From assembly GCA_009783465.1 (NCBI GenBank), contig WRDM01000006.1:27197-91196 (forward strand): 64,000 bases of DNA, in the 5' to 3' direction. Shown here piece by piece: positions 41,737 to 62,043 of the stretch. Within the stretch, counting starts at the first letter, position 1. Every line of letters starts with the position of its first letter. The DNA is from Phycisphaerae bacterium (GTDB lineage: Bacteria; Planctomycetota; Phycisphaerae; SM23-33). The notes beneath the pieces are model-generated. The model saw only the letters and a list, made by a program, of their open reading frames with translations. It was not told the origin of the DNA and did not search any database. Made by a program: the position numbers and the translations under genes.

Positions 41737-41745
41737 CGTTCTCTG

Positions 41746-42546: not shown

Positions 42547-42553
42547 CGGTTTC

Positions 42554-43399
42554 TCACCGGCTCTTGACGCTGAATCGCTGCATCAGCCAGTACGCCAGCA
42601 GGTTGATGGCCAGGATCGTCAGGACCAGGACGGTGGCGGTCGCGTAGGCTTTGTCCATGCTGATGCCCTCGCGGCTGAGGATGTAAAAATGCAGCGCCAG
42701 CGTGCGCGAGGAATCGAACATGGATTCGGGCATATTCAGCACCGAGCCTGCCGTCAGCATGACGGCGGCGGTTTCGGAAATGCTGCGTCCGATCGAGAGC
42801 ACGACGCCCGTGCCGATGCCCGGCAACGCCCCGCGAAGCACGACCCGCGTGACCATCTGCCACCGCGTCGCGCCCAGGCCGAAACTCACGTCGCGATAAC
42901 TCGCCGGCACCGCCCGGATGGCCTCCTCGCTGGTGCGGATAATGGTCGGCAAGACCATGATCGCCAAGGTCAACGCGCCGCTGAGGACGCTGATCCCCAG
43001 GCCGCATACGTCGACGAAAAAGACCCAGCCAAACAGGCCGAAAATGATCGACGGAATGCCCGCCAGGCAGTCGGCGCCGAACCGGATGGCGTGGGTGAAT
43101 CGGCTTTCGCGCGTGTACTCGGTGAGATAGACGGCCGTGGCGACGCCGACGGGCGCGGCGATAACGACGGCCAGGCCGGCCACGAACACCGTGCCGACGA
43201 TCATGGGAAAGATGCCCCCGTCGCGTCCCATGTTGGCGGGGCTTTTCGTGAGGAATTCCCACGTGATCAGGGGCAGTCCGTGGTAGAGGATGTAGGCGAT
43301 GACGAACATCAGCACGCCCAGCGTCACCAGGGCCAGCGACCAGAGAAAGGTCACCGCCATCGCCTGGGTGTGGGCGGGTTTGACTTTCAGTATCATCAC
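42554..43399 (-). CDS. pstA: Phosphate ABC transporter permease PstA
   Basis: 281 aa and polytopic, with an EAA-type loop (SEEAIRAVPASYRDVSFGLGATRWQ). Confidence 0.9.
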   Translation of the reverse strand: MMILKVKPAHTQAMAVTFLWSLALVTLGVLMFVIAYILYHGLPLITWEFLTKSPANMGRDGGIFPMIVGTVFVAGLAVVIAAPVGVATAVYLTEYTRESRFTHAIRFGADCLAGIPSIIFGLFGWVFFVDVCGLGISVLSGALTLAIMVLPTIIRTSEEAIRAVPASYRDVSFGLGATRWQMVTRVVLRGALPGIGTGVVLSIGRSISETAAVMLTAGSVLNMPESMFDSSRTLALHFYILSREGISMDKAYATATVLVLTILAINLLAYWLMQRFSVKSR

Positions 43400-44403: not shown

Positions 44404-44504
44404 CTAAATAAATTCTTCATGGATGGCCAATGAGTTCTTAACATATTGTGCAAAAAGTCGGCCTCGGATGACATAGGGAACTCGGGGAAAAACGAAAAAA
44501 GCGG

Positions 44505-45485: not shown

Positions 45486-45569
45486 GCGCCAACCGTACTC
45501 GCAACGGCGAGGCGATGCAAGGGTTTCTTTTGTGGACAGAAAAGTCAACCGCCCCGCCCTCGCAGATCC

Positions 45570-46740: not shown

Positions 46741-48750
46741 ATGGCTCATGACATTATAAAGGACTCGGTGGAGGCCCAGACGCATCGGGCCAGCGCGTTT
46801 ATTATTGCCATTTTGCTTGGCGGCGTGCTGGTGGTGCTCTCCTACATCGCGTTGTGGTTTGTCTTCCCCGAGTACACCGACGCCGACGGCAGCAACTTCT
46901 ACAGCGACGTGCTGGCCCTGGCGGGCACCGTCCTGCTGGGCGCGCCCATTGTCGGGCACGCGTTCAAGCATTTGGCCAAGGGGCACATGCACATGGACGA
47001 ACTGGTCGCGCTGGCGGTGATCGCTGCCGTCGCGACGGGCGACTACCAGACCGCCGGCGCGGTGGCGTTTTTCCTGCTGTTGGCCAACCTGATCGAGACG
47101 CGCACGGCCCTTGGCGCCCGCGCGAGCATCGAGAGCCTCATCCGTCTGACGCCCAAGAAGGCCCACCGCGTCCGGGACGACAAGGAAGAGTTGGTCGATC
47201 CGCGCGAGCTGAAGGCCAACGACATCGTTCGCGTGCGGCCTGGCGACAACGTGCCCGCCGACGGCGTGATTGTCAGCGGGGCCAGTTCGATCAATCAGGC
47301 GAATATCACGGGCGAGTCGCTGCCGGTGGACAAGGCCGTCGGCGACGAGGTGTTCAGCGGCACGAACAACCAGGCCGGCGCGATCGACGTCCGCGTCACG
47401 CGGGCCGGCGAGGACACCACGCTGGGCAAGGTGAAGAATCTCATTCTCCAGGCCCAGTCGAGCAAAATCCCGGTCATGCGGATGATCGACCGTTACGCGG
47501 CCTGGTATACGCCGACGATTTTGATGCTGGCGGGCGCGGTGTTGTTTTTCACGCGGGAGGCCGACGGCATGAACCGCGCGGTGACGATGCTGGTGCTGGC
47601 CTGTCCGTGCGCGTTGATTCTGGCGGTGCCGACGGCGATCGTGGCGGCGCTGAGTTGCGCGGCCCGGCTGGGCATTTATATCAAGGACGTCTCCGCGTTG
47701 GAGACGGCGAAGAATTTGACGGGGTTCGTGTTCGACAAGACCGGCACGTTGACGACGGGGCAGTTGAGCGTGACGCAGATGAAGCCCGCCCCCGGCGTGG
47801 ACGGGGCGGATTTGTTGTCGGCGGCGGCCAGTGCGGAGCAGATGTCCAAGCACCCGGTGGCCAGGGCGGTGGTGGCGGTGGCGGAGAAGGCCCGCATTTC
47901 GCTGGGGAAACCGAAGGATTTCGAGGAAATTTCAGGCCGAGGCGTGCGGGCCAGCGTGGACGGCTCGACGGTGATGGTCGGTCGGGCGACGTGGCTGGCG
48001 GAGCAGGGCGTGGACATGTCGCCGATGAACGACCCGCGATTCGCCGAGCCCGAAGGCGTCTCGACGCTGTACGTCGTGCGCGACGGGATGCTCTTGGGCT
48101 GGATCGGCCTGGAGGACCGCACGCGCGGCGAAGCCCGTCACGCGCTGGACGAGCTGCGCGGGGTCGGCATGAAGGATCTGGTGATGGTGACAGGCGACCG
48201 CTGGAGCGTTGCCCGCCGCGTCGCGCGGGAGATGGGCTGCACCGAGGTGCAGGCCGAGGTCTTGCCCGCGGACAAGCTCGAGCTGGTGGCGGCGATGAAG
48301 CGTCGCGGCCACAAGGTGGCGGTGGTGGGCGACGGCGTGAACGACGCGCCGGCCTTGGCGGCGGGCGATCTGTCCATCGCGATGGGCGCCGCCGGCAGTG
48401 ACGTGGCCATCAATTCCGCCGCGATTGCCCTGATGAACAACGACCTCCGCCGTCTGCCGTTTTTGATCAAGCTCTCCCGCCGGACGATGAAGGTGATTCA
48501 CCAGAATCTGATTTTCGGCGTGGTGTTCATTGTGCTTGGCCAGGTGGCCGCCGCGAGCGGATTGATGAAAATTCCGATCGTCGGCGCGGTGCTGCACATG
48601 CTGGCGGCAACGTTCGTGATCTTCAACTCCGCCCGCTTGGTCCGCTTCGGCGACGAGGAAGACCTGGCGCAGGGCCAGGCCGAAACGGCGCCGGCGCCCA
48701 GGGCGAGAGTGGAAGTGGTGGCGGTGGAAGCGGCAGCCACAAGCCACTAG
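46741..48750 (+). CDS. Heavy-metal translocating P1B-type ATPase (no N-terminal CxxC metal-binding domain)
   Basis: ITGESLPV, CPC (LACPCALIL), FDKTGTLT, VGDGVNDAPAL. The stop codon lies within a family A arm. Confidence 0.9.
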   Translation: MAHDIIKDSVEAQTHRASAFIIAILLGGVLVVLSYIALWFVFPEYTDADGSNFYSDVLALAGTVLLGAPIVGHAFKHLAKGHMHMDELVALAVIAAVATGDYQTAGAVAFFLLLANLIETRTALGARASIESLIRLTPKKAHRVRDDKEELVDPRELKANDIVRVRPGDNVPADGVIVSGASSINQANITGESLPVDKAVGDEVFSGTNNQAGAIDVRVTRAGEDTTLGKVKNLILQAQSSKIPVMRMIDRYAAWYTPTILMLAGAVLFFTREADGMNRAVTMLVLACPCALILAVPTAIVAALSCAARLGIYIKDVSALETAKNLTGFVFDKTGTLTTGQLSVTQMKPAPGVDGADLLSAAASAEQMSKHPVARAVVAVAEKARISLGKPKDFEEISGRGVRASVDGSTVMVGRATWLAEQGVDMSPMNDPRFAEPEGVSTLYVVRDGMLLGWIGLEDRTRGEARHALDELRGVGMKDLVMVTGDRWSVARRVAREMGCTEVQAEVLPADKLELVAAMKRRGHKVAVVGDGVNDAPALAAGDLSIAMGAAGSDVAINSAAIALMNNDLRRLPFLIKLSRRTMKVIHQNLIFGVVFIVLGQVAAASGLMKIPIVGAVLHMLAATFVIFNSARLVRFGDEEDLAQGQAETAPAPRARVEVVAVEAAATSH

Positions 48751-48876
48751 CCACAAGGTAAGGCACGTCGGTGGCGAAGTGAGAGCGTTGATTCGTTAAC
48801 TCGTTACTTCGTTGCTCGTGGTTGGTGAATGGAAGTGTTTGTTCGATGAGACGGTCGCATGGTTGACGTGAATAAC

Positions 48877-48976
48877 AACAGATTGGCCTTCCCGGTCTCG
48901 TGCCGGAGTGCCGGTACACAGCCGCGAAGCGGCGTTGTATATAGCCCAGGGCGAGCCGTACCCGGCGAGCCCTGGG
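48877..48976 (-). repeat. Family E repeat, copy 5
   Basis: Its reverse complement is nearly collinear with copy 6. Together they form a large IR. Confidence 0.8.
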
Positions 48977-49091
48977 GTAGCGGCCCCAACGAAATGAAGC
49001 CCCGGAGGGGCGTCTTGTTGTTCCACGCGTTCAGGCGTTCGCACTACGATACGACGCCCCTTCGGGGCTTGGATGGTATAGAGCAGCCTGT

Positions 49092-49191
49092 CCCAGGGTT
49101 CGCGGAGTACCGCTCACCCTGGGCTGTAGATGACGCCCCTTCGGGGCTGTGTGCCGGCACTCCGGCGCGAGACCGGGAAGGCCAGTCTGTT
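49092..49191 (+). repeat. Family E repeat, copy 6
   Basis: cccagggttcgcggagtaccgctcaccctgggctgtagatgacgccccttcggggctgtgtgccggcactccggcgcgagaccgggaaggccag. Confidence 0.8.
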
Positions 49192-49316
49192 ATTTCCCGC
49201 GATTACAAAGAAATAAAAGTAACCGAAGTGACTAGAGAAATCAGTGTAACGCTGTTTGCGACTGGCCTTGCCATACCTGGTGGCTTGTGGCTAGTGGCTT
49301 GTGGCTTGGGTGCGTA

Positions 49317-50807
49317 ATGATTCGATTCCTGTCCATCACGCATAACACGTTCATCCAGACGATCCGCCAGCCGATCTACGTCGTCGTGATCCTGGTTGTA
49401 TTCGCGGTGCTCGCGTTGACGCTGCCGCTGGCGGGGTGGACGGTTTCGACGGACTATCACGCCACCGACCAGTTGTTCCTGGAGGTGCTGGGGCTGGCGA
49501 ATCTCGGGGCGGCGGGGCTGCTGCTGGCGGCCTTCAGCGCGTCCAGCGTGCTGGCCAGGGAGATCGAGGAACGCACCGCGCTGACGGTGATTGCCAAGCC
49601 GGTGGCCCGGTCGACGTTTGTGCTGGGCAAGTTCGCTGGCGTGGCCGGGGCCGTCGCGATCGGGTTTTATCTGTGTTCGATCGTTTTCCTGCTGACGATC
49701 CGTCACAAGGTGATGTCGGCGGCGTCGGATTCGTTCGATTGGCCGGTGATCGTGATGGGGGTGTCGGCGCTGCTGTTGACGACGGCCGTCGCCATCGCGG
49801 GCAACCTGGTGTTCGGATGGCACATGACGTCCACGGCCGTCTGGTCGGGGCTGGCGTTTTTCACGGCGGCGTTTATGGTGGTGCTGTTTGTTGGCAAGGG
49901 GTGGGTGGCCGTGGTGCCGGGGTACGACGTGGTGCCCAATCCATTTCGCCCCGAGTCGCCGGTGATTACGGGCAAGCTTGTGACGGCGGTGGGGTTGATT
50001 TTCCTGGCCGTGATGGTGTTGACGGCGGTCGCGGTGGCGGCGAGCACGCGCATGGGCATGTTGATGACGCTGCTGACGTGCGGCGCGGTGTTTGTTCTGG
50101 GCGGCATGCATCCGAAGTTCCAGGTGTTGGCCCAGAGCGTGCCGGCGGTTCACGCGTTGACGTTCGCGCTGCCGAATCTGACGTATTTCTTCGCCGTGGA
50201 TGCGATGGCCGATCCGAAGGTGAGCATTCCGCTGTCGGTGGTCGGTTGGTACGTGTTGTACGCGGCGGTGTACATCGCGGGCGTGCTGGCGGCGGGGATC
50301 GCGTTGTTCCAGACACGCGAATTGTCGAATCAGGAGGGCGGTTCGTCGCTGTCGGGGGCGATGGGCGTGCTGGCCTGGGCGGGCAGGGTCGAGGCGGCCG
50401 TGCTGGTCGTCGCGGGCGTGTGCGTGCTGTCGACGCTGTTTCGCGCCGGGTTGTCGGCGGCGACGACGGGTCTGCCGCTGCTGCTGGCGGGCGTGGGCTT
50501 GTGGCTGTTATGGGGTTTCTTCGCGCGAGGCCGACGGTGGGGGTTCGGACTGGTCGGCCTGCGTTTCGTGGCGCAATTGGCGTACGGCGTGCTGGGGTTG
50601 TACCTCATCACGCTTCGGCCCGACCTTGGCGCCAACACGACCGGATATCTTTTCGTGGGAGCGGTTCTTGCCGGAGTCGCCCTGTTGATCCTGGCGCTGC
50701 CGCACACGCGCCAGCATTTTGGATGGGTTCGATCAAACAAAACGCGTCAGGCCCTGCCCATGGCCGTGCACGGGCCCTCGCACGCCGCGGTGAGCCATCA
50801 TGAGTGA
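49317..50807 (+). CDS. ABC-2/NosY-like polytopic membrane protein (496 aa)
   Basis: The N-terminus MIRFLSITHNTFIQTIRQPIYVVV and the segment LAREIEERTALTVIAKPVARSTFVLGKF are typical of ABC-2 permeases. There are extra C-terminal TM helices. Confidence 0.6.
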   Translation: MIRFLSITHNTFIQTIRQPIYVVVILVVFAVLALTLPLAGWTVSTDYHATDQLFLEVLGLANLGAAGLLLAAFSASSVLAREIEERTALTVIAKPVARSTFVLGKFAGVAGAVAIGFYLCSIVFLLTIRHKVMSAASDSFDWPVIVMGVSALLLTTAVAIAGNLVFGWHMTSTAVWSGLAFFTAAFMVVLFVGKGWVAVVPGYDVVPNPFRPESPVITGKLVTAVGLIFLAVMVLTAVAVAASTRMGMLMTLLTCGAVFVLGGMHPKFQVLAQSVPAVHALTFALPNLTYFFAVDAMADPKVSIPLSVVGWYVLYAAVYIAGVLAAGIALFQTRELSNQEGGSSLSGAMGVLAWAGRVEAAVLVVAGVCVLSTLFRAGLSAATTGLPLLLAGVGLWLLWGFFARGRRWGFGLVGLRFVAQLAYGVLGLYLITLRPDLGANTTGYLFVGAVLAGVALLILALPHTRQHFGWVRSNKTRQALPMAVHGPSHAAVSHHE

Positions 50808-53193
50808 ACATCCTCTGCAAACACAACAACCCGCCAGTGATCCCCTCGACGTCGTCAGTCAGCGTCGCGGCAAGCATATCGCCATTGCCGGCTTCGTCGT
50901 GCAACTGGCCCTTAGCGGCGTGCTGCTGGTGATCTGGAAGCTGACGGATTCGCTTTCGGCGATGTCGCTGGGCTGGCTGATGATCAGCGGCAGCCCGCTG
51001 TGGCTGATGAGCGCCGTGCTGTTCTATGTCCGCCAGTTGGCCTGCCAGGAGACGCTCGAACTGGAGCAGATTTCCCGCCAGGCCGCCGCGGGGTCGATCT
51101 TCGAGGCCAACGACATTTCGCTCCGCCCGGCCGCGAGCCGCGTGGCGTTCGTCCTGCGGTGGGTCGTGCCGATTTTCTCGCTGGCGCTGGCGTTGTACCT
51201 CGTGGGCGCGGGGCTGATGATGATTCGCTCGGCCTGGCTCAGCGGGGCCGACGGCGAGCTGCCGATTTCGCAGGCGATGGCGTCGCAACTGACGATCTTC
51301 ATTTTCGCGACGGTGGGCGTGGGTTTCGCGGCCTTTTTGTTCTCCCGCTATGCCACCGGGCTGGGCAGTCAACAAACCTATCGGCCGCTGCGGGCCACCG
51401 GAAGTTACCTGCTGGTGTGTGTGCTGGGCAGCCTGGTGCTGGCGGTGGCGCTGATGTTGGCGTACGGCAAGTATTATGCGTTCGATCGATATTTCGCGTT
51501 GGCGTTGCCGGCGGCGGCGATGATTGTTGCCGTGGAAATGATCTTCAACTTCGTGCTGGACATTTATCGGCCTCGCGTTCGCGGGCAGGAGGCCAGGCTC
51601 GCGTACGACAGCCGGCTGTTGAATCTGCTCGCCGAGCCAGGCCGGGTCGGGCACGGCATGGCGGAGGCGTTGAATTACCAGTTCGGTTTTGAGGTCTCCA
51701 AGACGTGGTTTTACCAGTTGTTGTCGCGGGCGTTGGCGCCGCTGATGCTGGCGGCGGTGCTGATCATGGTGCTCCTGACGAGCGTGGTGATCGTGCCGGA
51801 GGGCGACCAGGCCGTCGTCTTCGTCATGGGCAAGGCCAAGCCCGAGACGCTCAAATCGGGGCTTCGCGTCAAGCTTCCCTGGCCGCTCGCGACCGCCGAA
51901 ATCATCGACACCAGCGCCATTCACGAAATCCTCCTTGGCACCGGCGCGGCCCGGACCAGCGAGGACATCGAGAAGAACTACATCACCAGCCCCGCCACCG
52001 GGCGGAAGGAAGTGCAGCTCTGGACCACCGAACACGGCACGCAGGCGGAGAATGATTTCCTGGTGGCCGTGCCGGCGTCGCGGGACAATCCCGCCGCCGT
52101 CAACGTCATCAAGCTGGTGACGTGCGTGCAGTACGTCATCGACGATCCGTTCAAGTATTCGTACACGTACGACGACGCGCGGGCGCTGCTCGAGTCGGTG
52201 GCATACCAGGAGATGGTCCGCTACCTTGCCAGTGCCACGTTGCTGGAGGAGGACGGCACGCATCCGGGCCGGCCTCAGGCGATCATGACGACGGGTCGGC
52301 AGGCGGCGGCGGTGGCGTTGATGGAACGCATTCGCGGCCGCGTCGGGCCCGCCGGACTGGACCTGGGCGTGGCGATCGTGAACGTGGATTTCCAGTCGGT
52401 TCACCCGCCCGCGTCGGCGGCGGAGGCGTTCGAGAAGGTGCTCGCCGCCGAGCGAGGCCGCGACGTGCAGCGGTACGAGGCGCAGAAGCAGGCGAATCTC
52501 ATTTTGGCGCAGGTGGCGGGCACGCCGTCGGCGGCGTTGAGGCTGGCGTTCGCGATCGACCGCTATCAGAACCTCGAATCGCTGTCGCTGTCGCGTGAGG
52601 CGAATCTGGCCAAGCAGGTCGACACGTATCTCAAGCGGGCCTTGGATGACCTGGCCACGCTGCGTGAGGAGATTGAACGGGACGAGCTTTCGGGCAAGGC
52701 GTACACGGTGGCGCGTGTGGCGGAGGAGCAGGCGGCGGGCGAGTCGGTGGACATCGCCGACGCCGGCGACGCGCTGGCGGACAAGCGGCTGCTTCGCGAG
52801 GAGTACCGCCAGTACATCGCGACGTTGCAGGCCCTCAAGGCCGACCCGGCCTCGGTGGATTTGGCCAAGGCCCTCGACGACGCCAGTCGGCAGGCGAATG
52901 AATTGTTCGCCAAGGCGCAGGGCGAGCCGGCGCGTCTGTTGGCCGAGGCCCGCGCCGACCGGTGGTCGCGCGTGATGGCCGAACGGGCGCGAGCGGAGAC
53001 GTTCGACCGCGAGTTGGCCGCCTTCGAGGCCGCCCCGCAGCTGTACGTCTTCGACCGCTGGATGGACGTCATGGACCAGACGCTTCCGGACATCACCAAA
53101 AAGATCATCGCGGCCCCGCGACATTTCTATGAAGTTTGGTACGACCAAAGTCGCGGCGCCGGGGCCATGCAGGGCGCGCTGGAAGATCGGTAA
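50800..53193 (+). CDS. Polytopic membrane protein fused to an SPFH/band-7 domain and a coiled-coil tail (797 aa)
   Basis: 8-nt overlap with the upstream gene. About 7 hydrophobic helices, then IVPEGDQAVVFVMGKAKPETLKSGLRVKLPWPL (SPFH start), then a long Ala/Glu/Arg-rich helical C-terminus. Confidence 0.7.
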   Translation: MSEHPLQTQQPASDPLDVVSQRRGKHIAIAGFVVQLALSGVLLVIWKLTDSLSAMSLGWLMISGSPLWLMSAVLFYVRQLACQETLELEQISRQAAAGSIFEANDISLRPAASRVAFVLRWVVPIFSLALALYLVGAGLMMIRSAWLSGADGELPISQAMASQLTIFIFATVGVGFAAFLFSRYATGLGSQQTYRPLRATGSYLLVCVLGSLVLAVALMLAYGKYYAFDRYFALALPAAAMIVAVEMIFNFVLDIYRPRVRGQEARLAYDSRLLNLLAEPGRVGHGMAEALNYQFGFEVSKTWFYQLLSRALAPLMLAAVLIMVLLTSVVIVPEGDQAVVFVMGKAKPETLKSGLRVKLPWPLATAEIIDTSAIHEILLGTGAARTSEDIEKNYITSPATGRKEVQLWTTEHGTQAENDFLVAVPASRDNPAAVNVIKLVTCVQYVIDDPFKYSYTYDDARALLESVAYQEMVRYLASATLLEEDGTHPGRPQAIMTTGRQAAAVALMERIRGRVGPAGLDLGVAIVNVDFQSVHPPASAAEAFEKVLAAERGRDVQRYEAQKQANLILAQVAGTPSAALRLAFAIDRYQNLESLSLSREANLAKQVDTYLKRALDDLATLREEIERDELSGKAYTVARVAEEQAAGESVDIADAGDALADKRLLREEYRQYIATLQALKADPASVDLAKALDDASRQANELFAKAQGEPARLLAEARADRWSRVMAERARAETFDRELAAFEAAPQLYVFDRWMDVMDQTLPDITKKIIAAPRHFYEVWYDQSRGAGAMQGALEDR

Positions 53194-53199
53194 CGAGAA

Positions 53200-53398
53200 C
53201 GTAGCATGGGCGTCCCGCCCATGCGTTCCACGGGCGTCTCGCCCGTGGTGAGGTTGGCTGGATGTTTTGTACGGTGGATTGTTGACGCCCACACAGATGT
53301 GACGTTGAGTCGGCGTGTGGTGTGGACGTGTTGCCTGTCGTTACGGTTGCATGGGCGAGACGCCCATGCGACTCACGGGCAAGATGCCCGTGCTACGG
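53200..53398. repeat. Family G hairpin-of-hairpins element, copy G3 (inside the SPFH cluster)
   Basis: Arms at 53200-53253 and 53345-53398 (gtagcatgggcgtcccgcccatgcg... / ...cacgggcaagatgcccgtgctac). Confidence 0.8.
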
Positions 53399-53431
53399 TT
53401 TGAACAGCCTGATAACGAGGAAATGATTGAT

Positions 53432-54385
53432 ATGAAAAAGCACAAGGTAATTTTCGTGATGGCGGTGCTGTTGGTGGCGGTGTTGTTGGCCAACACGGTG
53501 ATGTTCGCGGTGGACGAGAAGCGCGACATCGTGTTGCTGGCGACGTTCAATTCCATCGGCGAGCCGATCTGGGGCAACCGCGACGATGCCGCCGGGCTGC
53601 ATTTCAAGGCCCCCTGGCCGATCCAGAAGGTCGTCCGCTACGACAGCCGCCAGATGGTCTTCGAGGACGCCCTCCAGGAGGTCGCCACCGCCGACAAACA
53701 GAACGTGCTCGTCATGATGTTCTGTGCGTGGCGGATCGACGACCCGGCCTTGTTCTACCGGGACGTCAAGACCGAGACCAACGCCGAGAAGAGTCTCCAG
53801 GACCGCCTGCGATCGACCAAGGCCGACGTGATTGCCCGCCGCGCGTTGAGCGACCTGGTCAACACCGACCCGGCCCGCATGAAGCTCGAGGACATCGAGG
53901 TGGAGATTCGCAAGGAACTGACCGTTTTCGCCAAGAAACGCGGTATCGAGATCACGCAGTTGGGCATCAAGCAGTTGGGGCTGTCGGCCCGCGTGAGCGA
54001 GACGGTCATCGAGTCGCAGATCAAGGAGCGCGAGCAGGAGGCCCAGACGTACCGGACCGCCGGCGAGGCGACCGCGACGGCGATCGTCGGGCGCGCCCGC
54101 GCCGCCAGCGACACGATCCTCGCCTTCGCCAAGCGTGACGCGGCCATCATCAAAACCGAGGGCGTCCGTGACGCCGCAACATCCTATGAAGCCTTCAGCA
54201 AGCACGAAAAACTCAGCATGTACCTGCGCCTGCTGGAGACCATCCAGAACGGATTCACCCGCAACACGGAAATCCTGCTGGACTTGACCAACCCCACCCT
54301 CGTCCCGCTGCCGCCGAGCATGGAAAGCCTCGGCATCCCTCGCGAGAGACCCATGAGCGGCGGGGGGACGGCGGCGGCGAAGTGA
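53432..54385 (+). CDS. HflC-like SPFH/band-7 protein (single N-terminal TM)
   Basis: MKKHKVIFVMAVLLVAVLLANTVMFAVDEKRDIVLLATFN... The start is ATG 53432 or 53423. Confidence 0.75.
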   Translation: MKKHKVIFVMAVLLVAVLLANTVMFAVDEKRDIVLLATFNSIGEPIWGNRDDAAGLHFKAPWPIQKVVRYDSRQMVFEDALQEVATADKQNVLVMMFCAWRIDDPALFYRDVKTETNAEKSLQDRLRSTKADVIARRALSDLVNTDPARMKLEDIEVEIRKELTVFAKKRGIEITQLGIKQLGLSARVSETVIESQIKEREQEAQTYRTAGEATATAIVGRARAASDTILAFAKRDAAIIKTEGVRDAATSYEAFSKHEKLSMYLRLLETIQNGFTRNTEILLDLTNPTLVPLPPSMESLGIPRERPMSGGGTAAAK

Positions 54386-54390
54386 GGAAG

Positions 54391-54586
54391 AAGCCAGTAG
54401 CCAATAGCCAATAGGTAAGGAACGTTGGTGGCCACGGCAAAAATGAGATGTGTTGGCTTGACGATGCGGTGCGACATGTGGAATGAGATGCGAAAAATGC
54501 AAACGAGGATTTGCCCGGAACCAGTGTGATGCTGTATACGCCAAATCCTGCCATACCTGATGGCTATTGGCTACTGGCTATTGGCT
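54391..54586 (-). repeat. Family A composite element, copy A6 (inside the SPFH cluster)
   Basis: Arms aagccagtagccaatagccaatagg / cctgatggctattggctactggctattggct. Core ends ggtaaggaacg... and ...ctgccatacc. Confidence 0.8.
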
Positions 54587-54596
54587 GAGGAGATAG

Positions 54597-56153
54597 ATGA
54601 TGGCTGACCATAATCACAAACACGATCACGATAACCACGAGCACGGCCCGGCATGTAATCATGGGCACGATCACGACCACGAACCTGGCGTAGGATGTTG
54701 TGCCCACGGGCACGGGGTTGTGGACGACGGGCCTTTGGATACGTCGAACATGGACGTGGCCAGCCGGAGTTTGGCCGACGCGTTGCGGCTGAGTTTCCGC
54801 GTGCTGTCGGTGCTCATGATTGGCGTGCTGATCGCGTTCGCGGTGAGCGGGTTTTCGTTCGTCGACAGCGGGCAGGTGGGCGTGAAGAAAGTCTTCGGCC
54901 GCGTGACGGGCACCAGCCCGGCCGGCGGCGGACTGACGTACACCTGGCCGTATCCGGTGGGCGACATCGAACTGGTCGACGTCCGTGAGCGGCAGTTGCA
55001 GATCAAGGATTTCTGGATGCTCGAAAGTGCCGCCGACGTCGGCAAGGACGTCTCGCAACGCACGACGATGTCGAAGGGCCTGCAGCCCGTGCTCGACGGC
55101 GCGCTCTTCACGGGCGACCGCAACCTGATTCATGCCCGCATCGACTGCCGCTACCGCGTGACGGACCCCGTGACGTACCTCGCCCAGATCGCGCAGGTCA
55201 AGAGCAGCGATATCCTGGCTGAACGCGATCGCGATAAGGCGCTGGAGGAAGTGGTTCGCATGGCCGTCTGCCGGGCGGCCATTCGGTCGGCGGCGGAGCG
55301 GACCGCGCAGCATCTCAAGACGTACAAGAACCATTTCGAGGAAGTGGTTCGCGTGTCGGCCCAGCGGGAATTGGACGCGATGCTCGGTGGCGCGGGGGCG
55401 TCGCAGGTGGTGGTGCTCAACACGTTGTTGATGGACGTTGAGTGGCCTGTGCAGGCCCAGCCGGCGTACGTGGCCGCCGACCAGGCGCGGAAGAATTTCC
55501 AGACCCGCAAGAACGACGCGATTCGTCAGGCCCGCGAGGTGCTCAATCAGACCGCCGGCGAGGAGTACGCCAGGTTGGTCGGTGTGCCCTGGCAGGACGA
55601 CGTGCCCGAGGTCGGCAGCGACACCAATCTTATTGGGCAGTATCAGTGGCTTCGCGAGGAGGCCAATCGCAAGCTGGCCCTGGCGGCGAAGGAAGACAGG
55701 ATCGAGAAGGGTTCCGCCCGCGCCGCCGAACTGCGGGCCGAGGCCGACGAACTCGAGTCCAAGGCGTTGATCGCGCTGGAACGCGTCGGCGACGAACTGA
55801 CCTCCGGCCGCGTGAAGGGCAAGGCCAGCGAAATCCTCGCCAAGGCCCGCGCGGAGTCGATGGATTACATCCTGGCCATGAAGGCCAGGGAGGACCGCCT
55901 GACGCAACTGCTGCCGGAGTACGAGAAATCGCCCGAGATGCTGATGGACCGTCTGTGGCGCGAAACGTGGGACCAGGTGCAGGGGTCGCCGATGGTGCTG
56001 CGGCGATTCATACCGTTCGCGGACGGCCCCCGCACGGTGATCCAGCTTGGCCCGAACCCCGACCATATTAAGGCGTACAACAAGGCGCACGCGGACTGGC
56101 TCAAGGGCGAAGCCGCCCGCAAAGCCAAAACGGAATTACCGCCGGCGCCGTGA
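54597..56153 (+). CDS. SPFH/band-7 protein with a His/Cys-rich N-terminus (518 aa)
   Basis: GAGGAG RBS. N-terminus MMADHNHKHDHDNHEHGPACNHGHDHDHEPGVGCCAHGHG, then a TM helix, then SPFH start FVDSGQVGVKKVFGRVTG, then a coiled-coil tail. Confidence 0.75.
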   Translation: MMADHNHKHDHDNHEHGPACNHGHDHDHEPGVGCCAHGHGVVDDGPLDTSNMDVASRSLADALRLSFRVLSVLMIGVLIAFAVSGFSFVDSGQVGVKKVFGRVTGTSPAGGGLTYTWPYPVGDIELVDVRERQLQIKDFWMLESAADVGKDVSQRTTMSKGLQPVLDGALFTGDRNLIHARIDCRYRVTDPVTYLAQIAQVKSSDILAERDRDKALEEVVRMAVCRAAIRSAAERTAQHLKTYKNHFEEVVRVSAQRELDAMLGGAGASQVVVLNTLLMDVEWPVQAQPAYVAADQARKNFQTRKNDAIRQAREVLNQTAGEEYARLVGVPWQDDVPEVGSDTNLIGQYQWLREEANRKLALAAKEDRIEKGSARAAELRAEADELESKALIALERVGDELTSGRVKGKASEILAKARAESMDYILAMKAREDRLTQLLPEYEKSPEMLMDRLWRETWDQVQGSPMVLRRFIPFADGPRTVIQLGPNPDHIKAYNKAHADWLKGEAARKAKTELPPAP

Positions 56154-56174
56154 GACGGCCGATAGTCGAAAGTC

Positions 56175-56254
56175 TTTTTTTGCCACAGAGACACAGAGGA
56201 CGCAGAGATTCTCTGTGTCACTCTCTGAGTTCTCTGTGCCTCTGTGGTAAAAAA
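56175..56254. repeat. Word-type hairpin ccacagagacacagagg / cctctgtgcctctgtgg flanked by a T-run (5') and an A-run (3')
   Basis: The IR is seen directly. The flanking runs are in the opposite order to a canonical terminator on both strands. Confidence 0.75.
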
Positions 56255-56271
56255 CGCAACGAGGAAAACCG

Positions 56272-57522
56272 ATGCCCGCCGTTATCGAAGCTTTGAACGT
56301 GACGAAAACTTTCCGCGACTTCTGGCTGCGCGAGAAGGTCACCGCCGTCAATGCGCTGGACCTGACCGTCGAGCCGAGGCAAGTGTTTGGCCTGCTCGGT
56401 CCCAACGGGTCGGGAAAGAGCACGACCATCAAGATGATGCTCGGCCTGCTGTTTCCCACGCGCGGACGCATCAGCGTGTTCGGCAAGCTGCCCACGGACG
56501 TGGCCGTCAAAAACCGCATCGGCTTTCTGCCGGAGGAATCGTACCTCTATCCGTTCCTGGACGCCCGCGAGACGCTGGATTATTACGGACGGCTGTTTCA
56601 TCTGCCGCGAGCCGACCGCCGCCGCCGCATCGAGATGCTGCTGGAAATGGTCGGGCTTTCGAGCGTGGCGTACCGCCGCGTGGGCGAGTATTCCAAGGGC
56701 ATGCAGCGGCGGATCGGGCTGGCGCAGGCGCTGATCAACGATCCCGACCTGCTGATTCTCGACGAGCCGACCAGCGGCATGGATCCGATCGGCACGCGGC
56801 AGTTCAAGGATTTGATTCAGACGCTGGCCCTTCGCGGCAAGACGATCGTGCTGTCGAGCCACCTGCTCGGCGACGTCGAAGACGTGTGCGACCAGGTGTG
56901 CATCCTCTACGGCGGGCGGAAGCGGGCGCTGGGGCGGGTCGACGAACTGCTGGCCAAGACCGACGCGATGGAACTCACCGTCGACACGATCGACGAGGCG
57001 ACGATGGCGCAGATCGAAGCGGTGTTGGCCAAGCAGGGCAAGGCCGTCCGCGGCGTCAAGCCGCCTCGTGACCGGCTGGAAGATCTGTTCCTGCGGATCG
57101 TTCGCGAGGCGCAGGCGCAGAAGGTGTCGACGGGCGGCGCGATGGCCGGCGGGGCGGTGGCGGAATTTTTGCGTGTCGGCGGCGGATCGCGGTCGGTGAT
57201 CGACGAGCTGGTCCAGTCGGCGGATTCCGACGCGCCGAAAACCGAGCCGGTGCACGTGTCGGCGGCGACGGAGTCGTCGTCGATTGAGCGGGATGTGTTG
57301 CGGCAGTTGGAAAACGCCGACACCGCGCCAGCGGAGGTATCTATCGTATCCACGAGCAAGCCTGCTACGGGAGATTCACGCGGGCAAGATGCCCGCGCCA
57401 CGTTGCCGGCGGCTTCGCCGTCCGCCAAGGCGCCCGCCAAGCCGGCGCCCGCGCCGCAGAAGGATGCCGACCGGTCCGTGATTGATTCGCTGCTGTCGCG
57501 TGACCAGGAGAAGGGCCAATGA
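56272..57522 (+). CDS. ABC transporter ATP-binding protein (ABC-2 subfamily) with a ~170-aa low-complexity tail
   Basis: GLLGPNGSGKST, YSKGMQRRIGLAQAL, LLILDEPTSGMD, VLSSHLL. The tail is rich in Ala/Pro/Ser. Confidence 0.85.
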   Translation: MPAVIEALNVTKTFRDFWLREKVTAVNALDLTVEPRQVFGLLGPNGSGKSTTIKMMLGLLFPTRGRISVFGKLPTDVAVKNRIGFLPEESYLYPFLDARETLDYYGRLFHLPRADRRRRIEMLLEMVGLSSVAYRRVGEYSKGMQRRIGLAQALINDPDLLILDEPTSGMDPIGTRQFKDLIQTLALRGKTIVLSSHLLGDVEDVCDQVCILYGGRKRALGRVDELLAKTDAMELTVDTIDEATMAQIEAVLAKQGKAVRGVKPPRDRLEDLFLRIVREAQAQKVSTGGAMAGGAVAEFLRVGGGSRSVIDELVQSADSDAPKTEPVHVSAATESSSIERDVLRQLENADTAPAEVSIVSTSKPATGDSRGQDARATLPAASPSAKAPAKPAPAPQKDADRSVIDSLLSRDQEKGQ

Positions 57523-59489
57523 CCAACGTCTGGGCCGTCACGAGAGCGACGTTCATCCAAAGCCTCCGCTCCAAGGTCGGGCTGGCGGCGATGATTCTGT
57601 TGGCCGTCCTGCTGCTGGCGGCGCCGATGATGGTCAACAACGGCGCCGCTCCGCTGGCCGACCGCATCCGCACGTTTCTCTCCTACAGCCTCGGACTTAC
57701 GGGCGTCATCCTGGCCGTCATCACGATTTTCCTCGGCACGACCTTTCTCTGCGCCGACGTGCGGCAGAAACAGATTTTCATCCTCGCCGCCAAGCCCGTG
57801 GCCCGGTGGCAGTATGTTGTGGGACGCTGGCTGGGCGTCGTCCTGTTGAACGTGGTGCTGCTGGCGATCGCCGGCGCCGGCGTGTACGCGGGAGCGCAAT
57901 ACCTCCGCAGCCAGCCGGCCCTGAGCCCCACCGACCGCCGCGCCGTCGAGACGGAAGTGTTCACCGCCCGTCGGCAGATCGCGCCCGATTTCTCTCGCGA
58001 CGACGAGTACGTCCTTGCCACCATCGAAGGCGAGATCGAGCGGCTCCGCAGGGAGCACGCGCTGGAGGACGTGATTGCCGGCTATCTGCCTCGCGCGGGC
58101 GGAAACCGCGAGGAGGCGTTCAACCTCGTCAAGCAGGAACTCGCGAAGATGGCGCAGGACTCGAAGCAGTCCTTCCGGCCTGGCGGGGGCAGGGCGTATG
58201 TTTTCCGCGACGTCCAGGTTGCAGGGATGACCCGCACGGCGTCGGCGACGGTGGACAAGCTCGCCGCCGAAGAACGCACGCTGTTCCTGGAGATTTCCGA
58301 CTCGCTGGCCTCCGAACTGCTGCCGGGCAGGCCCGTGAATGTCAACGGGGCGCTGTCGCGCGTGCAGGAGGTGGTCGACAAGGGCGTGGTCCGTTCCGCG
58401 CTGGCGATGGTGAATACCGCCGACACGGGCAAACGTCAATTGCTGCTGGAGGCCCCCGCGCATGTGCTCGCGGAGTTCAAGCCGGACATGACGGTGAACA
58501 TCCAGGAGGCCCCGTCGCGCGTGGTGAGCGTCGGCGGCACCCGGCTGCGGGTTGAGGTGGAGAAGGATTCGTTCGCCGACAAGGGCCTGGCCAATCTCAA
58601 GCGCGGCGACTACGTGGCGGTGGCGGTGGAGTTGAATTACAGCCGGCTTGAGGTCGAGGTGACGGAGTCGGCGTTTTTCAGCCAGGGGCTTGGCCGCCTC
58701 AGGGAAGGCGACCGCGTGGAGATCGCGATGGAGCCGATGATGGAGCTGAGTTACAAGCTCACGGCCGGCTCGTCGGTGCCCAGCGGGCAGACCGTCAGGA
58801 GCCTGTGGGACATCGGGCCGTTGAATACCGAGAACAGTCAGCGGGTGTATGAACGGATTCCGCAGAATGACGTGCCCAGCCGGAACGTGCGTGTGCTCGC
58901 GTCAGGCCGGTGCGTGGACAACGAGGGCGCGGTCGTCGCGGTGTTCATTAACGTCAATACGGGCGAGGGCGGCGGGCCTGTCACGTCGATCACGATCGCG
59001 CCGGGTGACATTTCGCTGCTGTACCCGGTGGGGTCGTTCGGGCCGAACCTGGCCTGGGCGCTGGTCACGATATTGGTGCAGTTGGCGTTCATCGCGGCGG
59101 TGGGCGTGCTGACGGCGACGTTTTTGTCGTTCCCGGTGGCGGTGCTGACGTCGGGCGCGCTGGTGCTGTTCGCGCTCATGATGGGCTACATCACCGACGC
59201 GGTGGGCTTCATGCCTTCCGAAGGCGCCAACTACGGCATGAAGGGCATCGTCTGGCTGTTGTCGCTGGTGCTGCCGAATCTCAGTGATTTGTCGCCGGCC
59301 CAGGACATCGTCAACGGCGTGGAGGTGGCGACGTTCACGGGCGGCTGGCGAAACATGGCGATGCGTCCCGGCCTGGACACGTTCTGGCAGGCGATGAAAA
59401 CATTGCAAGCCCCGCTGTCGACGCTGATCGTGCTGGCGATCGGCTGTGCGATTTTCACGAAGCGGGAGCTGGCGAGAGTGCAGGTGTAA
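57519..59489 (+). CDS. ABC-2-like permease with a large insert between TM helices (656 aa)
   Basis: ATGA overlap with the ATPase gene. The N-terminus MTNVWAVTRATFIQSLRSKVG and the segment ADVRQKQIFILAAKPVARWQYVVGRW are ABC-2-like. A hydrophilic block of about 350 aa precedes the C-terminal TM bundle. Confidence 0.65.
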   Translation: MTNVWAVTRATFIQSLRSKVGLAAMILLAVLLLAAPMMVNNGAAPLADRIRTFLSYSLGLTGVILAVITIFLGTTFLCADVRQKQIFILAAKPVARWQYVVGRWLGVVLLNVVLLAIAGAGVYAGAQYLRSQPALSPTDRRAVETEVFTARRQIAPDFSRDDEYVLATIEGEIERLRREHALEDVIAGYLPRAGGNREEAFNLVKQELAKMAQDSKQSFRPGGGRAYVFRDVQVAGMTRTASATVDKLAAEERTLFLEISDSLASELLPGRPVNVNGALSRVQEVVDKGVVRSALAMVNTADTGKRQLLLEAPAHVLAEFKPDMTVNIQEAPSRVVSVGGTRLRVEVEKDSFADKGLANLKRGDYVAVAVELNYSRLEVEVTESAFFSQGLGRLREGDRVEIAMEPMMELSYKLTAGSSVPSGQTVRSLWDIGPLNTENSQRVYERIPQNDVPSRNVRVLASGRCVDNEGAVVAVFINVNTGEGGGPVTSITIAPGDISLLYPVGSFGPNLAWALVTILVQLAFIAAVGVLTATFLSFPVAVLTSGALVLFALMMGYITDAVGFMPSEGANYGMKGIVWLLSLVLPNLSDLSPAQDIVNGVEVATFTGGWRNMAMRPGLDTFWQAMKTLQAPLSTLIVLAIGCAIFTKRELARVQV

Positions 59490-59491
59490 CG

Positions 59492-59654
59492 GCAGCCAAC
59501 CAGCCACCAGCCACAAGCCACAAGGTAAGGAACGCACAGGGCGAAAAAGACAATGATAGCGGAAATAACGATGCCTGTGACAACATCAGGATCGGCTGAT
59601 ATAGCAACCGAACGACGAATACCTTGTGGCGTGTGGCTAGTGGCTTGTGGCTGG
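59492..59654 (-). repeat. Family A composite element, copy A7
   Basis: Arms gcagccaaccagccaccagccacaagccacaagg / ccttgtggcgtgtggctagtggcttgtggctgg. The core matches A4 (gatcctgatg...ggcatcgttatttccgctatcattgtcttt...cgttccttacc on the minus strand). Confidence 0.8.
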
Positions 59655-59666
59655 TTTGGAGAATAA

Positions 59667-61784
59667 ATGTCCATAAGCCCAACCAGACTTCGACAACTCG
59701 TATTCCTCGCCGCGGCTCTTGTGCTGCTGGGGTGCGGTTTTGCCATGCAGGGTTCGCTCAACGAGGTGACGGAGGCACACCAGATGGTGATGCCCGACAA
59801 CGTCGTTCAGGAGAATCATCCCGAGCTGGTGCTGCTGGAAACCATGCCCGGCGGGCTGCGGGCGATCGTGGTGAACTATCTCTGGATGCGGGCCGAGGAA
59901 CTCAAGCAGGAAGGGAAGTATCACGAAAGCCGGCAGCTGGCGGAGATGATCTGCAAGCTCATGCCCCGCCAGACTGGCGTGTGGGCGTATCACGCGTGGA
60001 ACAACGCGTTCAACATTTCCGTGGGCACGCACACGGCGGACGAACGGTGGGAGTGGGTCACCAGCGGCGTTCGGCTGCTGCGGGACAACGGCATTCGGTT
60101 CAATCCGCAGTCGCTGGAGCTGCACAAGGAACTGGGGTGGATTTTCTGGATGAAGATGGGCGGGCAGCTCGACGACATGCACAAGGAGTACAAGAGTCGC
60201 TGGGCGGGCGAGATGCAGTATCTGCTGGCCGCGCCGCCGCTGGGCGAGACGTCCGTTGTGGTCGACGCATTCGAGCCGATCGCGAAGGCGCGGATCATCA
60301 AGCCGTCAGAGAACAAGCTCGTCCAGCCGGGCGATTGGCTCGTTCAGCCGGGGCCTCTCGAAGAACTGCTCAAGGACGCCGACGTGGCGGCGCTGGCGAA
60401 GGCGTTGAAGGACGTGGGCGTCCACGTGCTCATCGCCAACGACACGGGCAAACGCGAGGAGGACTGGAAGGCCGAACTGGCCATGCGAAGCCCCGACATG
60501 CTGCCGCGGTCGTTCCTGTCGGCTTACTCTCGCTACAGCCTGGACCAGTCGATCCAGTCGGTCCGCCTCCAGCGCCCGCAGCTCAAGACCGAGCGCGCCC
60601 AGCGGGTGTCTGCCGTCATCAATGACGCCAGGTATGCCGATGGGCGGGCCAAGGCGCTGGCCTTCCTGCGGGCGCAGGTGCTCTGGAACGCCTACAAAAT
60701 GGACCCGTCGTGGATGCACGAGATGATGCAGGTCTACGGGCCTCTCGACTGGCGGAGCGTCCAGACGCACGCGCTGTATTGGATGACGTACGGCTTCCAC
60801 GCGTCCACCGGGCGGAACGTGGAGGAGATCGCCGGCAAAGTCGCCGCCGCCGAGGAATACAGCGCCCGCAAGCGGGACGAACGGGCCGGCGTCACGACGC
60901 TCAACAGCGACCGCGTCATGTTCAACGCGCTCAAGGATCTCACCTGGTTCGGCCGCGTGACGCTGCTGGAGGATCAACAATGGGTGACGGTGCCCGCCGA
61001 GTTCGACGCGCGCGGGCGCGTGATCGCGACGGTGCAGATCCTTCAGCCAGGCCCGTTGAGGCCGGAGTCGCCGGTGGTGCTGTACACCGCCGACGCGCGG
61101 TTCATCGAGCCGTTGAACAAACTGATGGATCACGTCATCCGCGAAGTGATCGCGATTGAAAACCAGGCGTACGAAGACAGCGTGTTCCGGGCCGGACATT
61201 TGAATTACATGGTGTCGGCCATGCGACTGCTGTACATGCTCGACCGGCCTCGCGAGGCGACGCGGCTGTACGAGGAGATGAAGGACAACTACAAACTTGG
61301 CGGCGACGGGGTGTGGGACAAGGACCTCGGCGACCTGCTGCGGGAGCGAATGTCCGCCGACGGCGGCAGGCCGATCACGTCCGAGGGCACCGCGCAGATC
61401 ACCGCCGGGCTGGTGACGTGGCTGATGTTGCAGGCGGTTTCGTACGATCAGGCCAGCCTGGACCGCTCGCAGGAGTTTCTGCAATGGGCCCTCGACGTGC
61501 ACACGGCGACGAATCTCGACACGAACGACCGCATCCGGCTGGCGCCGTTCGACGTCTTCGCGATGGTGGTCGCCCGCAACCTGTTGATCTCGCCCGAGGT
61601 GTACAGCATGCGGCTGGACATTCAGGACCGCGCCAAGCTCTGGCGAAGCCTGCCCGACGAGTGGCGGCTGCGGATCTACGACAGCCTGGTCGTCCCGCTG
61701 CGTGTGCAGTGCGCGCAGGAGAACGAGTCGTTCGAGACCAATTTCCGCGAACCGCCAGGCATGCGGGAGTTCCGGCAGCAGTAG
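59667..61784 (+). CDS. Hypothetical 705-aa N-terminally anchored, predominantly helical protein
   Basis: GGAGAA RBS. One N-terminal TM helix (LVFLAAALVLLGCGF). No family recognised by eye. Confidence 0.6.
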   Translation: MSISPTRLRQLVFLAAALVLLGCGFAMQGSLNEVTEAHQMVMPDNVVQENHPELVLLETMPGGLRAIVVNYLWMRAEELKQEGKYHESRQLAEMICKLMPRQTGVWAYHAWNNAFNISVGTHTADERWEWVTSGVRLLRDNGIRFNPQSLELHKELGWIFWMKMGGQLDDMHKEYKSRWAGEMQYLLAAPPLGETSVVVDAFEPIAKARIIKPSENKLVQPGDWLVQPGPLEELLKDADVAALAKALKDVGVHVLIANDTGKREEDWKAELAMRSPDMLPRSFLSAYSRYSLDQSIQSVRLQRPQLKTERAQRVSAVINDARYADGRAKALAFLRAQVLWNAYKMDPSWMHEMMQVYGPLDWRSVQTHALYWMTYGFHASTGRNVEEIAGKVAAAEEYSARKRDERAGVTTLNSDRVMFNALKDLTWFGRVTLLEDQQWVTVPAEFDARGRVIATVQILQPGPLRPESPVVLYTADARFIEPLNKLMDHVIREVIAIENQAYEDSVFRAGHLNYMVSAMRLLYMLDRPREATRLYEEMKDNYKLGGDGVWDKDLGDLLRERMSADGGRPITSEGTAQITAGLVTWLMLQAVSYDQASLDRSQEFLQWALDVHTATNLDTNDRIRLAPFDVFAMVVARNLLISPEVYSMRLDIQDRAKLWRSLPDEWRLRIYDSLVVPLRVQCAQENESFETNFREPPGMREFRQQ

Positions 61785-61787: not shown

Positions 61788-62043
61788 GGGGCTTCCCTTC
61801 TCATGGCGTAGACGAAATATTCGTTCGAGGGAAGCAAGCCAGTAGCCAATAGCCAGTAGCCATCAGGTATGGCTGGGTTTGCTGTAAATTACACGATCCT
61901 GATTTGCGTTTTTCGCGTATCGATCCCCGCTTTCATTGCCTTTTCGCTCTTGTCGTTCCATACCTGTTGGCTACTGGCTATTGGCTACTGGCTTGTTACC
62001 CTCGAACGAGTTTCTCACTCGTGCCACGAGAAGGGAAAGCCCA
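61788..62043 (+). repeat. Family A composite element, copy A8 (~80-nt arms), between convergent genes
   Basis: gggcttcccttctc...cgttcgagggaagcaagccagtagccaatagccagtagcc / inverse. The core is near-collinear with A1. Confidence 0.85.

Follow-up and report, generated by a model that had tools for sequence, protein, structure and literature searches.

The sequence analysed here, referred to below as the window, is a 64-kb stretch of contig WRDM01000006.1 from a Phycisphaerae bacterium, and the subject of this work is a gene cluster on its + strand, at positions 49317-61784, in which three SPFH (Band_7) proteins are encoded together with components of an ABC-2 transporter. Seven long open reading frames (ORFs), designated g1 to g7, lie within these limits (Table 1) and agree, gene by gene, with the initial annotation of the region, which announced eight genes and listed seven; only seven are present. 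The sole further + strand ORF inside or adjoining the cluster, 48859-49317 (152 aa), was rejected as an eighth gene: it sits in a palindromic repeat element and has a homologue in none of the 80 related loci described below. The true eighth conserved member is a P1B-type heavy-metal P-type ATPase encoded outside those limits, ahead of g1. The gene set first described was therefore incomplete, having overlooked a strictly co-conserved partner that bears on function. Together, the eight genes constitute a conserved, uncharacterised inner-membrane module of Phycisphaerae (Planctomycetota). This description draws on gene content, domain identities, predicted topology and conservation, from which we infer the interactions proposed further on.

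The two gene overlaps originally reported were both found. Genes g1 and g2 overlap by 8 nt, with g1 ending in CAT CAT GAG TGA (CATCATGAGTGA) and the ATG of g2 lying inside that stretch, and g5 and g6 share an ATGA at positions 57519-57522. A hydropathy scan gave around 12 segments for g1, six strong plus one weaker segment for g2, and one each for g3, g4 and g7; in g6, three segments are followed by a gap of ~390 residues and by three more.

Table 1. Features of the gene cluster, its upstream partner and the intervening repeat element (positions in the window).
Feature	Positions	Strand	Basis
P1B-type heavy-metal P-type ATPase	46741-48750	+	TIGR01525, E1-E2_ATPase
Palindromic repeat element filling the P1B/g1 gap	48734-49306		heptamer inverted repeats; absent from orthologous loci
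g1, ABC-2/NosY-like permease, 496 aa	49317-50807	+	PF13346; PF12679 in orthologues; hhalign to g6
g2, N-terminal polytopic domain	50800-51795	+	hydropathy, alignment
g2, HflK-like part	51796-53193	+	Band_7, TIGR01933, PDB 7vhp_E
g3, single-TM HflC-like SPFH protein	53423-54385	+	Band_7, TIGR01932, 7vhp_G
g4, cytoplasmic His/Asp/Cys-rich N-terminal tail (residues 1-48)	54597-54740	+	read from sequence
g4, HflK-like body	54741-56153	+	Band_7, TIGR01933, 7vhp_E
g5, ABC ATPase (DrrA/GldA/NodI-like)	56272-57522	+	ABC_tran, TIGR01188
g6, NosY-like ABC-2 permease, 656 aa	57519-59489	+	PF12679 family matches, AF2 model, NosY structure matches
g7, N-terminally anchored periplasmic alpha-solenoid, 705 aa	59667-61784	+	AF2 model; no family matches

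The cluster is deeply conserved. When one genome per GTDB species was scanned by pattern, relatives of the polytopic SPFH protein g2 turned up in at least 305 of them, and the best 80 loci, with 10-kb flanks, were taken for analysis. There are more than 120 full-length relatives of g2, with ~42% identity, and those that carry a source name are labelled as Phycisphaerae or Planctomycetes. Tblastn searches with the proteins of the window showed that the order P1B ATPase, g1, g2, g3, g4, g5, g6, g7 is kept in all 80 loci; the full set of eight genes is found in 50 of them and, in the other 30, the absent genes lie beyond the contig end, so that there is no real exception. This order persists at a protein identity across loci of just 26-45% for most members, the best conserved being the P1B ATPase (63-79%), which is adjacent in every locus whose contig reaches it. 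Likewise, the remotest homologues of g7 (26-28% identity) still follow three Band_7 genes, an ABC ATPase and a permease. When the whole window was compared with the 80 loci in six frames, sharing stopped at the P1B ATPase on one side and at g7 on the other; among the flanking genes of these loci, even the family seen most often is limited to ~22 of the 80. Two upstream ORFs of the window that appeared to be conserved were discarded, as they encode PstB ATPases cross-matching g5. These results show that the gene order is maintained outside this genome, through a deep clade, and is not a chance juxtaposition.

From g2 to g7, successive genes are separated by medians of 47, 17, 18, -0.5 and 12 nt, and g5 and g6 overlap in most loci, indicating that g2-g7 are packed like an operon. 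The arrangement described for the window, with all genes on the same strand and g1 overlapping g2, is true there but is the minority form among the related loci. Of 79 loci, 76 carry g1 on the opposite strand, where it converges with the pump gene and diverges from g2; the same-strand orientation was seen in the window, in its close relatives L085 and L086, and in L042, L066 and L067. Its strand was flipped in place, with its slot unchanged (e.g., 49317-50807 in the window vs. 8453-9874 in L001). The gap between the P1B gene and g1 has a median of 31 nt overall and is 15 nt in L085. In the closest relatives of the window the pump gene is on the same strand as g1 and 15-100 nt upstream of it, so that, in this clade, all eight genes may be on a single transcript.

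The assignments to the SPFH, ABC-2 and ABC ATPase families made in the initial annotation were upheld by profile and structure tests. The Band_7 model (PF01145, gathering cut-off of 23.6 bits) matches g2, g3 and g4 with 45.2, 79.4 and 39.5 bits, respectively. Scores against the corresponding NCBIfam equivalog models are below the cut-offs, with 84 bits for g2 and 54.4 bits for g4 against HflK (TIGR01933, cut-off 159.4) and 109.1 bits for g3 against HflC (TIGR01932, cut-off 134.4); these proteins are therefore HflK/C-like and not demonstrable orthologues. Protein g3 is collinear with Escherichia coli HflC (7vhp_G, E 1.2e-16), while residues 694-770 of g2 and 398-465 of g4 (E 9e-11 for the latter) match HflK (7vhp_E), in both cases including the C-terminal segment LLPEY..PE...RL. 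A profile-profile comparison of the families from related loci aligned g2 283-785 with g4 55-488 (hhalign, 99.8%), and both proteins have in common a cytoplasmic juxtamembrane motif, which in g4 is SLADALRLSFRVL. It follows from this paralogy that g2 is a g4-like protein with six extra transmembrane (TM) helices in place of the variable tail. As judged from sequence, then, the SPFH set is composed of two HflK-like paralogues, g2 and g4, and one HflC-like protein, g3.

The three proteins differ in what accompanies the SPFH domain. Protein g2 (50800-53193, 797 aa) starts with seven predicted TM segments, followed by the SPFH domain, an extended helical region and the HflK-type C-terminal segment; its N-terminal domain contains a highly conserved cytoplasmic loop, DSRL..AEPGRVGH..EALNYQFGFEVSKTWFYQLL, and the columns N292-Y305 are invariant in an alignment of 23 sequences. 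The ORF of g3 spans 53315-54385, with a likelier start at the ATG at 53423 that yields a 320-aa protein with a single TM segment. This later start is supported by an inverted-repeat pair (53200-53247 with 53350-53397) that overlaps the GTG-extended reading of g3. Protein g4 (54597-56153, 518 aa) begins MMADHNHKHDHDNHEHGPACNHGHDHDHEPGVGCCAHGHG and continues with the juxtamembrane motif and a TM segment, after which the SPFH domain leads into an extended helical region and the HflK-type C-terminal segment. The positive-inside pattern predicts that the N-termini of g2, g3 and g4 are cytoplasmic and their SPFH domains periplasmic, as in HflK/C. Motif and tblastn searches found no further SPFH or ABC-2 paralogues in the 64-kb window.

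Protein g5 matches ABC_tran (PF00005) with 106.1 bits (cut-off 25) and TIGR01188 with 196 bits, and scores well against the DrrA, GldA and NodI models; with the defence-system models of PADLOC we obtained only generic ABC-ATPase cross-matches, for g5. The protein ends in a tail of ~150 aa, of low complexity, disordered and unconserved except for two V-I-D-[DES]-L-[LV] motifs (57196-57213 and 57478-57495). At least two such motifs occur in the tails of 49 out of 59 g5 orthologues, the last copy usually after A-D-R, and they are probably docking motifs. For the permeases, the window proteins score just under the cut-offs (g1, 24.3 bits against PF13346, cut-off 25; g6, 25.9 bits against PF12679, cut-off 27.2), while the cut-off of PF12679 is passed by six of ten g1 orthologues and this model is matched by 36 of the 46 members of the g6 family. 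Both families clearly belong to the ABC-2 type and are paralogous to each other over the first ~145 residues (hhalign probability 99.7%, E 2.6e-25). Protein g1 consists of a permease core (residues 1-337) plus a lineage-specific C-terminal extension of 4-5 TM segments, which is lacking in the 331-aa protein of the distant locus L081.

A sequence search of the PDB with g6 gave no match at E<=1. Its AlphaFold2 (AF2) model (predicted local distance difference test, pLDDT, 86.8) has as best PDB matches the NosY chains 7o0y, 7znq and 7o0z, with probability 1.00 and a target-relative template-modelling score (TM-score) of ~0.4. Between TM3 and TM4 there is an insert of ~390 aa (around 57909-59036), hydrophilic, beta-rich and periplasmic by topology, for which a Foldseek comparison with the PDB returned nothing significant; a NosD-like beta-helix, for which there was no Foldseek match, was ruled out. 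With 656 aa, the window protein is longer than its relatives (~550-570 aa), and residues 291-370 are modelled with low confidence. Within g6 there is also a 43-nt direct repeat (58322-58364 and 58481-58523, 159 nt apart, 74% identity), which encodes ..VNVNGALSRV.. and ..VNIQEAPSRV..; the repeat suggests a duplicated module of ~53 aa in the periplasmic insert.

The last gene of the cluster, g7, encodes the 705-aa anchored helical protein that could not be placed in any family in the initial annotation. We found no match for it in Pfam, in NCBIfam or, at E<=1, among PDB sequences; Pfam searches with 47 aligned relatives left 46 of them without a match and gave a marginal TPR_14 for the other one. 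The AF2 model (pLDDT 89.8; predicted TM-score, pTM, 0.90) is an N-terminally anchored alpha-solenoid with a small insert, at residues 430-474, folded as a four-stranded beta-sheet. Its Foldseek comparison with the PDB yielded only generic helical-repeat matches, the best with E 0.016 and TM 0.14. Among 1.84 billion proteins, 3138 representative clusters belong to this large family at E<=1e-3; Trp, Arg, Asn, Asp, Lys and Tyr make up most of the residues listed as invariant or nearly invariant. Protein g7 and the periplasmic domain of g6 represent two large, unannotated families whose folds are predicted with confidence.

The P1B ATPase gene opens with a TTG at 46675, and the conserved start, MAHDI.., is at 46741. 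Its product scores 560.3 bits against TIGR01525 (cut-off 346) and 185 bits against E1-E2_ATPase, and is a P1B ATPase, with CPC in TM4 of 56 out of 57 sequences. In the alignment, C310-P-C312 (TM4) and H641 (TM6) are invariant and H609-Q-N is nearly so. Every orthologue with a clear start runs from MAHDI.. straight into the membrane, indicating that the pump lacks an N-terminal metal-binding domain. The P1B subgroups have characteristic signatures, with YN and MxxSS in P1B-1 (Cu+), an Asp in TM6 in P1B-2 (Zn2+) and SPC with HEGxT in P1B-4 (Co2+). In an alignment to reference pumps done by eye and read against these generally known signatures, the pump has none of the three: TM5 contains HQNL..GxxFI, with no YN; TM6 contains ALHxxAAT, with the invariant His; and TM4 has CPC, not SPC.

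A second feature related to metals is the N-terminal tail of g4. A His-rich tail, counted as at least four His in ~30 residues, is present in 26 of 63 g4 orthologues, or in 29 of 66 by a second count (41-44%), whereas His-rich termini occur in 0-12% of the orthologues of the other seven cluster proteins, vs. 44% for g4. In four genomes (L013, L018, L037 and L066) a His-rich insert is found on the pump, directly after MAHD (e.g., MAHDIFHVHSHDDEHS), and in three of these four the g4 tail contains 0-1 His. A metal-binding arm on either partner is what would be expected if the pump and g4 work together.

Several intergenic regions of the window contain members of a dispersed palindromic family, whose ends are formed by inverted runs of AGCCAnn heptamers (3-4 copies) followed by AGGTAAGG; the heptamer pattern has 25 matches, vs. 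0 expected by chance. Copies are located at 3873-4029, 12165-12320, 18229-18440, 31819-31844, 41598-41616, 48734-49306, 54392-54586, 59502-59652 and 61837-61993. Four of them fill gaps in or beside the cluster and are absent from the orthologous loci, indicating that they are insertions, of a kind similar to miniature inverted-repeat transposable elements (MITE) or repetitive extragenic palindromes (REP). The element between the P1B gene and g1 has inverted-repeat ends of (AGCCAnn)n heptamers plus inner arms of 103 nt, in which 48920-48976 (- strand) and 49092-49148 (+ strand) match the Rfam family Acido-Lenti-1 just below its threshold (35 and 33.2 bits, cut-off 37); related sequences appear again near 9934-10297 and 702-782. 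Other long intergenic hairpins or inverted repeats are at 56174-56258, 32864-32962, 9989-10197 and 2691-2804, in addition to the pair preceding g3. Rfam searches of the cluster and the whole window retrieved no known regulatory RNA, and the hairpins score as miRNA-precursor-like, i.e., as simple long hairpins.

The cluster is flanked in the window by a pstSCAB-phoU operon and by genes for an alpha/beta hydrolase, a short-chain dehydrogenase and a CBM9-like protein. The phosphate-uptake operon (39955-45548, - strand) contains pstS, pstC, pstA, two pstB paralogues (41746-42546 and 40805-41575) and phoU, and is not kept beside the cluster in other genomes. Some loci have genes of protein quality control nearby. 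Genes resembling mcsA and mcsB, probably together with clpC, lie upstream of the cluster on the opposite strand in ~20 of the loci L001-L080, and in L081 the downstream region (12088-15276) carries fxsA with hslV and hslU. These quality-control neighbours are lineage-specific.

The initial annotation proposed, as a hypothesis, a membrane-microdomain cage that organises an exporter or extractor, and this is still a plausible hypothesis. We tentatively favour an extended version of it, in which an HflK/C-like cage would organise the ABC-2 machine and the metal pump as one inner-membrane platform for the handling of a divalent metal. Protein g3, with g4 and g2, would form an oligomeric SPFH cage of the HflK/C type on the periplasmic face of the inner membrane, whereas g5 and g6, probably also with the paralogue g1, would assemble into a NosFY-like type-V ABC machine, the large periplasmic domain of g6 working with the anchored solenoid g7. 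The cage would keep this machine and the P1B pump encoded next to it together in a single membrane microdomain, where both would take the place of FtsH, the client of classical HflK/C. The His/Asp-rich cytoplasmic tail of g4 could then act as a membrane-tethered metal-binding arm for the pump, and in some genomes the equivalent tail would be on the pump itself; this role is suggested by the lack of a metal-binding domain in the pump and by the likeness to the mycobacterial protein PacL1 with the pump CtpC, discussed below. The overall role of the module would concern a divalent transition metal at the cell envelope, in efflux or delivery. It is possible, if doubtful, that the locus encodes a self-contained 'caged transporter', with a three-paralogue SPFH cage, a dedicated client made up not of a protease but of an ABC-2 mechanotransducer and a P1B pump, and a scaffold-tethered metal arm.

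Several observations weigh against this interpretation. The pump, g1 and g2-g7 constitute three separate transcription units in most genomes, the His-rich tail is missing from more than half of the g4 orthologues, and no metal-sensing riboswitch or regulator was detected in or beside the cluster (Rfam on the cluster and the window). Additionally, Cys, His and Met are absent among the invariant or nearly invariant residues listed for the periplasmic domain of g6, and the sole possible ligands listed for g7 are H172 and M350, indicating no obvious metal site in either. The helical regions of g2 and g4 are ~85-115 residues longer than that of HflK, while g3 is of canonical length, so that a simple alternating cage in the style of HflK/C is not assured. 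Moreover, g3 and g4 might just be the HflC and HflK of this lineage, with FtsH encoded elsewhere.

This last alternative, in which g3 and g4, with g2 as an extra paralogue, would be ordinary Phycisphaerae HflC and HflK proteins that regulate a distant FtsH, appears to us rather unlikely. In that case the pump, g7 and the ABC-2 transporter would not be caged clients but either substrates of FtsH or factors of envelope quality control under common regulation. The absence of FtsH and NfeD from the cluster was noted in the initial annotation; indeed, neither is found there, and motif and tblastn searches gave no FtsH signature in the 64-kb window. However, hflKC is not linked to ftsH in E. coli either, and therefore the missing gene is uninformative and does not exclude the involvement of FtsH. 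In PDB and NCBIfam, g2, g3 and g4 match HflK and HflC best, which agrees with this alternative, although all three remain under the equivalog cut-offs, and known hflKC loci contain nothing comparable to the tight, deeply conserved operon that includes the ABC machine and g7. Similarly, the mcsA/mcsB genes upstream and hslVU plus fxsA downstream point to a quality-control neighbourhood, but one restricted to particular lineages. The pump itself could be a substrate, as MgtA, a P-type ATPase, is listed among the known substrates of FtsH (PMC13220708).

Another explanation dispenses with the metal and has the ABC-2 machine (g5, g6 and g1) export or extract an envelope lipid, glycan or lipoprotein towards g7, with the SPFH proteins as a lipid-microdomain scaffold and the pump as a mere syntenic neighbour. 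Transporters of the ABC-2 (type V) class usually carry polysaccharides, lipids or lipid-linked molecules, and the good scores of g5 against DrrA, GldA and NodI are in line with such substrates, as are the invariant residues of g7, which are of the kind usual where glycans or headgroups, and not metals, are bound. The g6 insert weakly resembles carbohydrate-binding module (CBM) and MreC-like beta domains, but these Foldseek matches are not significant (CBM chains, E above 0.1). Exporting such molecules would also leave the strict co-conservation of the pump and the His-rich tails unexplained, and the block contains no glycosyltransferase or lipid-synthesis genes; we consider this explanation unlikely. 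Lastly, the genes could be neighbours by inherited synteny only, without any joint action, considering that all loci are from one phylum and that most genomes have three transcription units. This is very improbable, given that the order is invariant despite the low identity of most members and flanks that are not shared with the window, that g5 and g6 overlap in most loci, with g2-g7 gaps of a few tens of nt, and that g1 flipped strand yet kept its slot.

Proteins of the SPFH superfamily (HflK/C, prohibitins, flotillins, stomatins, erlins) are now viewed as cage-forming scaffolds whose clients are largely open. Here, candidate clients are written into a deeply conserved block, namely a NosFY-like ABC machine, an unclassified periplasmic solenoid and a metal pump, and this block is found in an abundant class of environmental bacteria and defines eight proteins for study. 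Should the caged transporter be true, it would be the first bacterial SPFH cage with a transport-machine client encoded in its own operon. Likewise, a true link to metals would take the idea of a scaffolded 'effluxosome' beyond mycobacteria, into an unrelated phylum and to scaffolds of the SPFH type.

The initial annotation knew of no characterised system of this composition, and we found neither a characterised orthologue nor a paper describing one. Our literature searches retrieved no paper combining HflK, HflC and ABC-2, the SPFH survey papers mention no ABC partner, and the search for SPFH with ABC transporters and Planctomycetes gave nothing relevant. Source annotations of the relatives are limited to 'SPFH domain-containing protein', 'FtsH protease regulator HflK', 'ABC transporter permease' and 'hypothetical protein'. 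None of the outcomes that would speak against the cluster as first described was observed, i.e., failed domain calls, a neighbourhood that is not conserved, or characterised orthologues with unrelated roles.

Among known systems, the SPFH proteins are closest to the HflK/HflC-FtsH complex of E. coli (7vhp, 7wi3, 9cz1), where g3 aligns with HflC and g2 and g4 with HflK, with the same N-in TM anchor, periplasmic SPFH domain and subsequent helical regions. They differ in the existence of three paralogues instead of two, with six extra TM helices in g2 and a His-rich tail in g4, and in their operon neighbours, which are g7 and an ABC-2 machine in place of hfq and hflX, with no FtsH in view. The second comparison is with NfeD-stomatin operons, such as PH1510/PH1511 of Pyrococcus (PMC2636767, PMC4208085), which also unite an SPFH protein and a dedicated membrane partner in a conserved operon; the SPFH proteins of the cluster are, however, of the HflK/C type and not of the stomatin type, and neither an NfeD nor a ClpP-like protease gene was found in the cluster or in the related loci inspected (for NfeD, none among the called genes of L081-L086).

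For the transporter, the reference is NosDFY(L), a copper-delivery ABC machine for the maturation of nitrous oxide reductase (PMC8457098; PDB 7o0y, 7znq, 7qba). The membrane part of g6 best matches NosY (18-20% identity), g5 is an ABC-2 ATPase of the NosF type, and both systems couple a periplasmic domain to the permease and have a link to metal, which for the cluster is putative. Conversely, no product of the cluster matches the NosD, NosL or NosZ families, and it is not a member of this system; the periplasmic domain of g6 is an in-chain insert, without evident conserved metal ligands, and there are two paralogous permeases. In Mycobacterium tuberculosis, the membrane-anchored protein PacL1 carries the motif DLHDHDH, binds Zn and is the organiser of 'effluxosomes', membrane platforms of P1B ATPases (PMC9374683, PMC13043812). 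As in PacL1-CtpC, the cluster places a P1B ATPase beside a membrane-anchored protein with a cytoplasmic His/Asp motif, which in g4 is HDHDNHEH..HGHDHDHE. PacL proteins are nevertheless small, of the DUF1490/DUF6110 type, with a C-terminal motif, no SPFH domain and no associated ABC transporter, and g4, for which Band_7 is the sole Pfam match, does not belong to their family; the likeness of g4 and its pump to PacL1-CtpC is a functional analogy only, and not homology. Overall, the parts of the module come from known superfamilies, and what is new is an SPFH scaffold operon with a new set of candidate clients.

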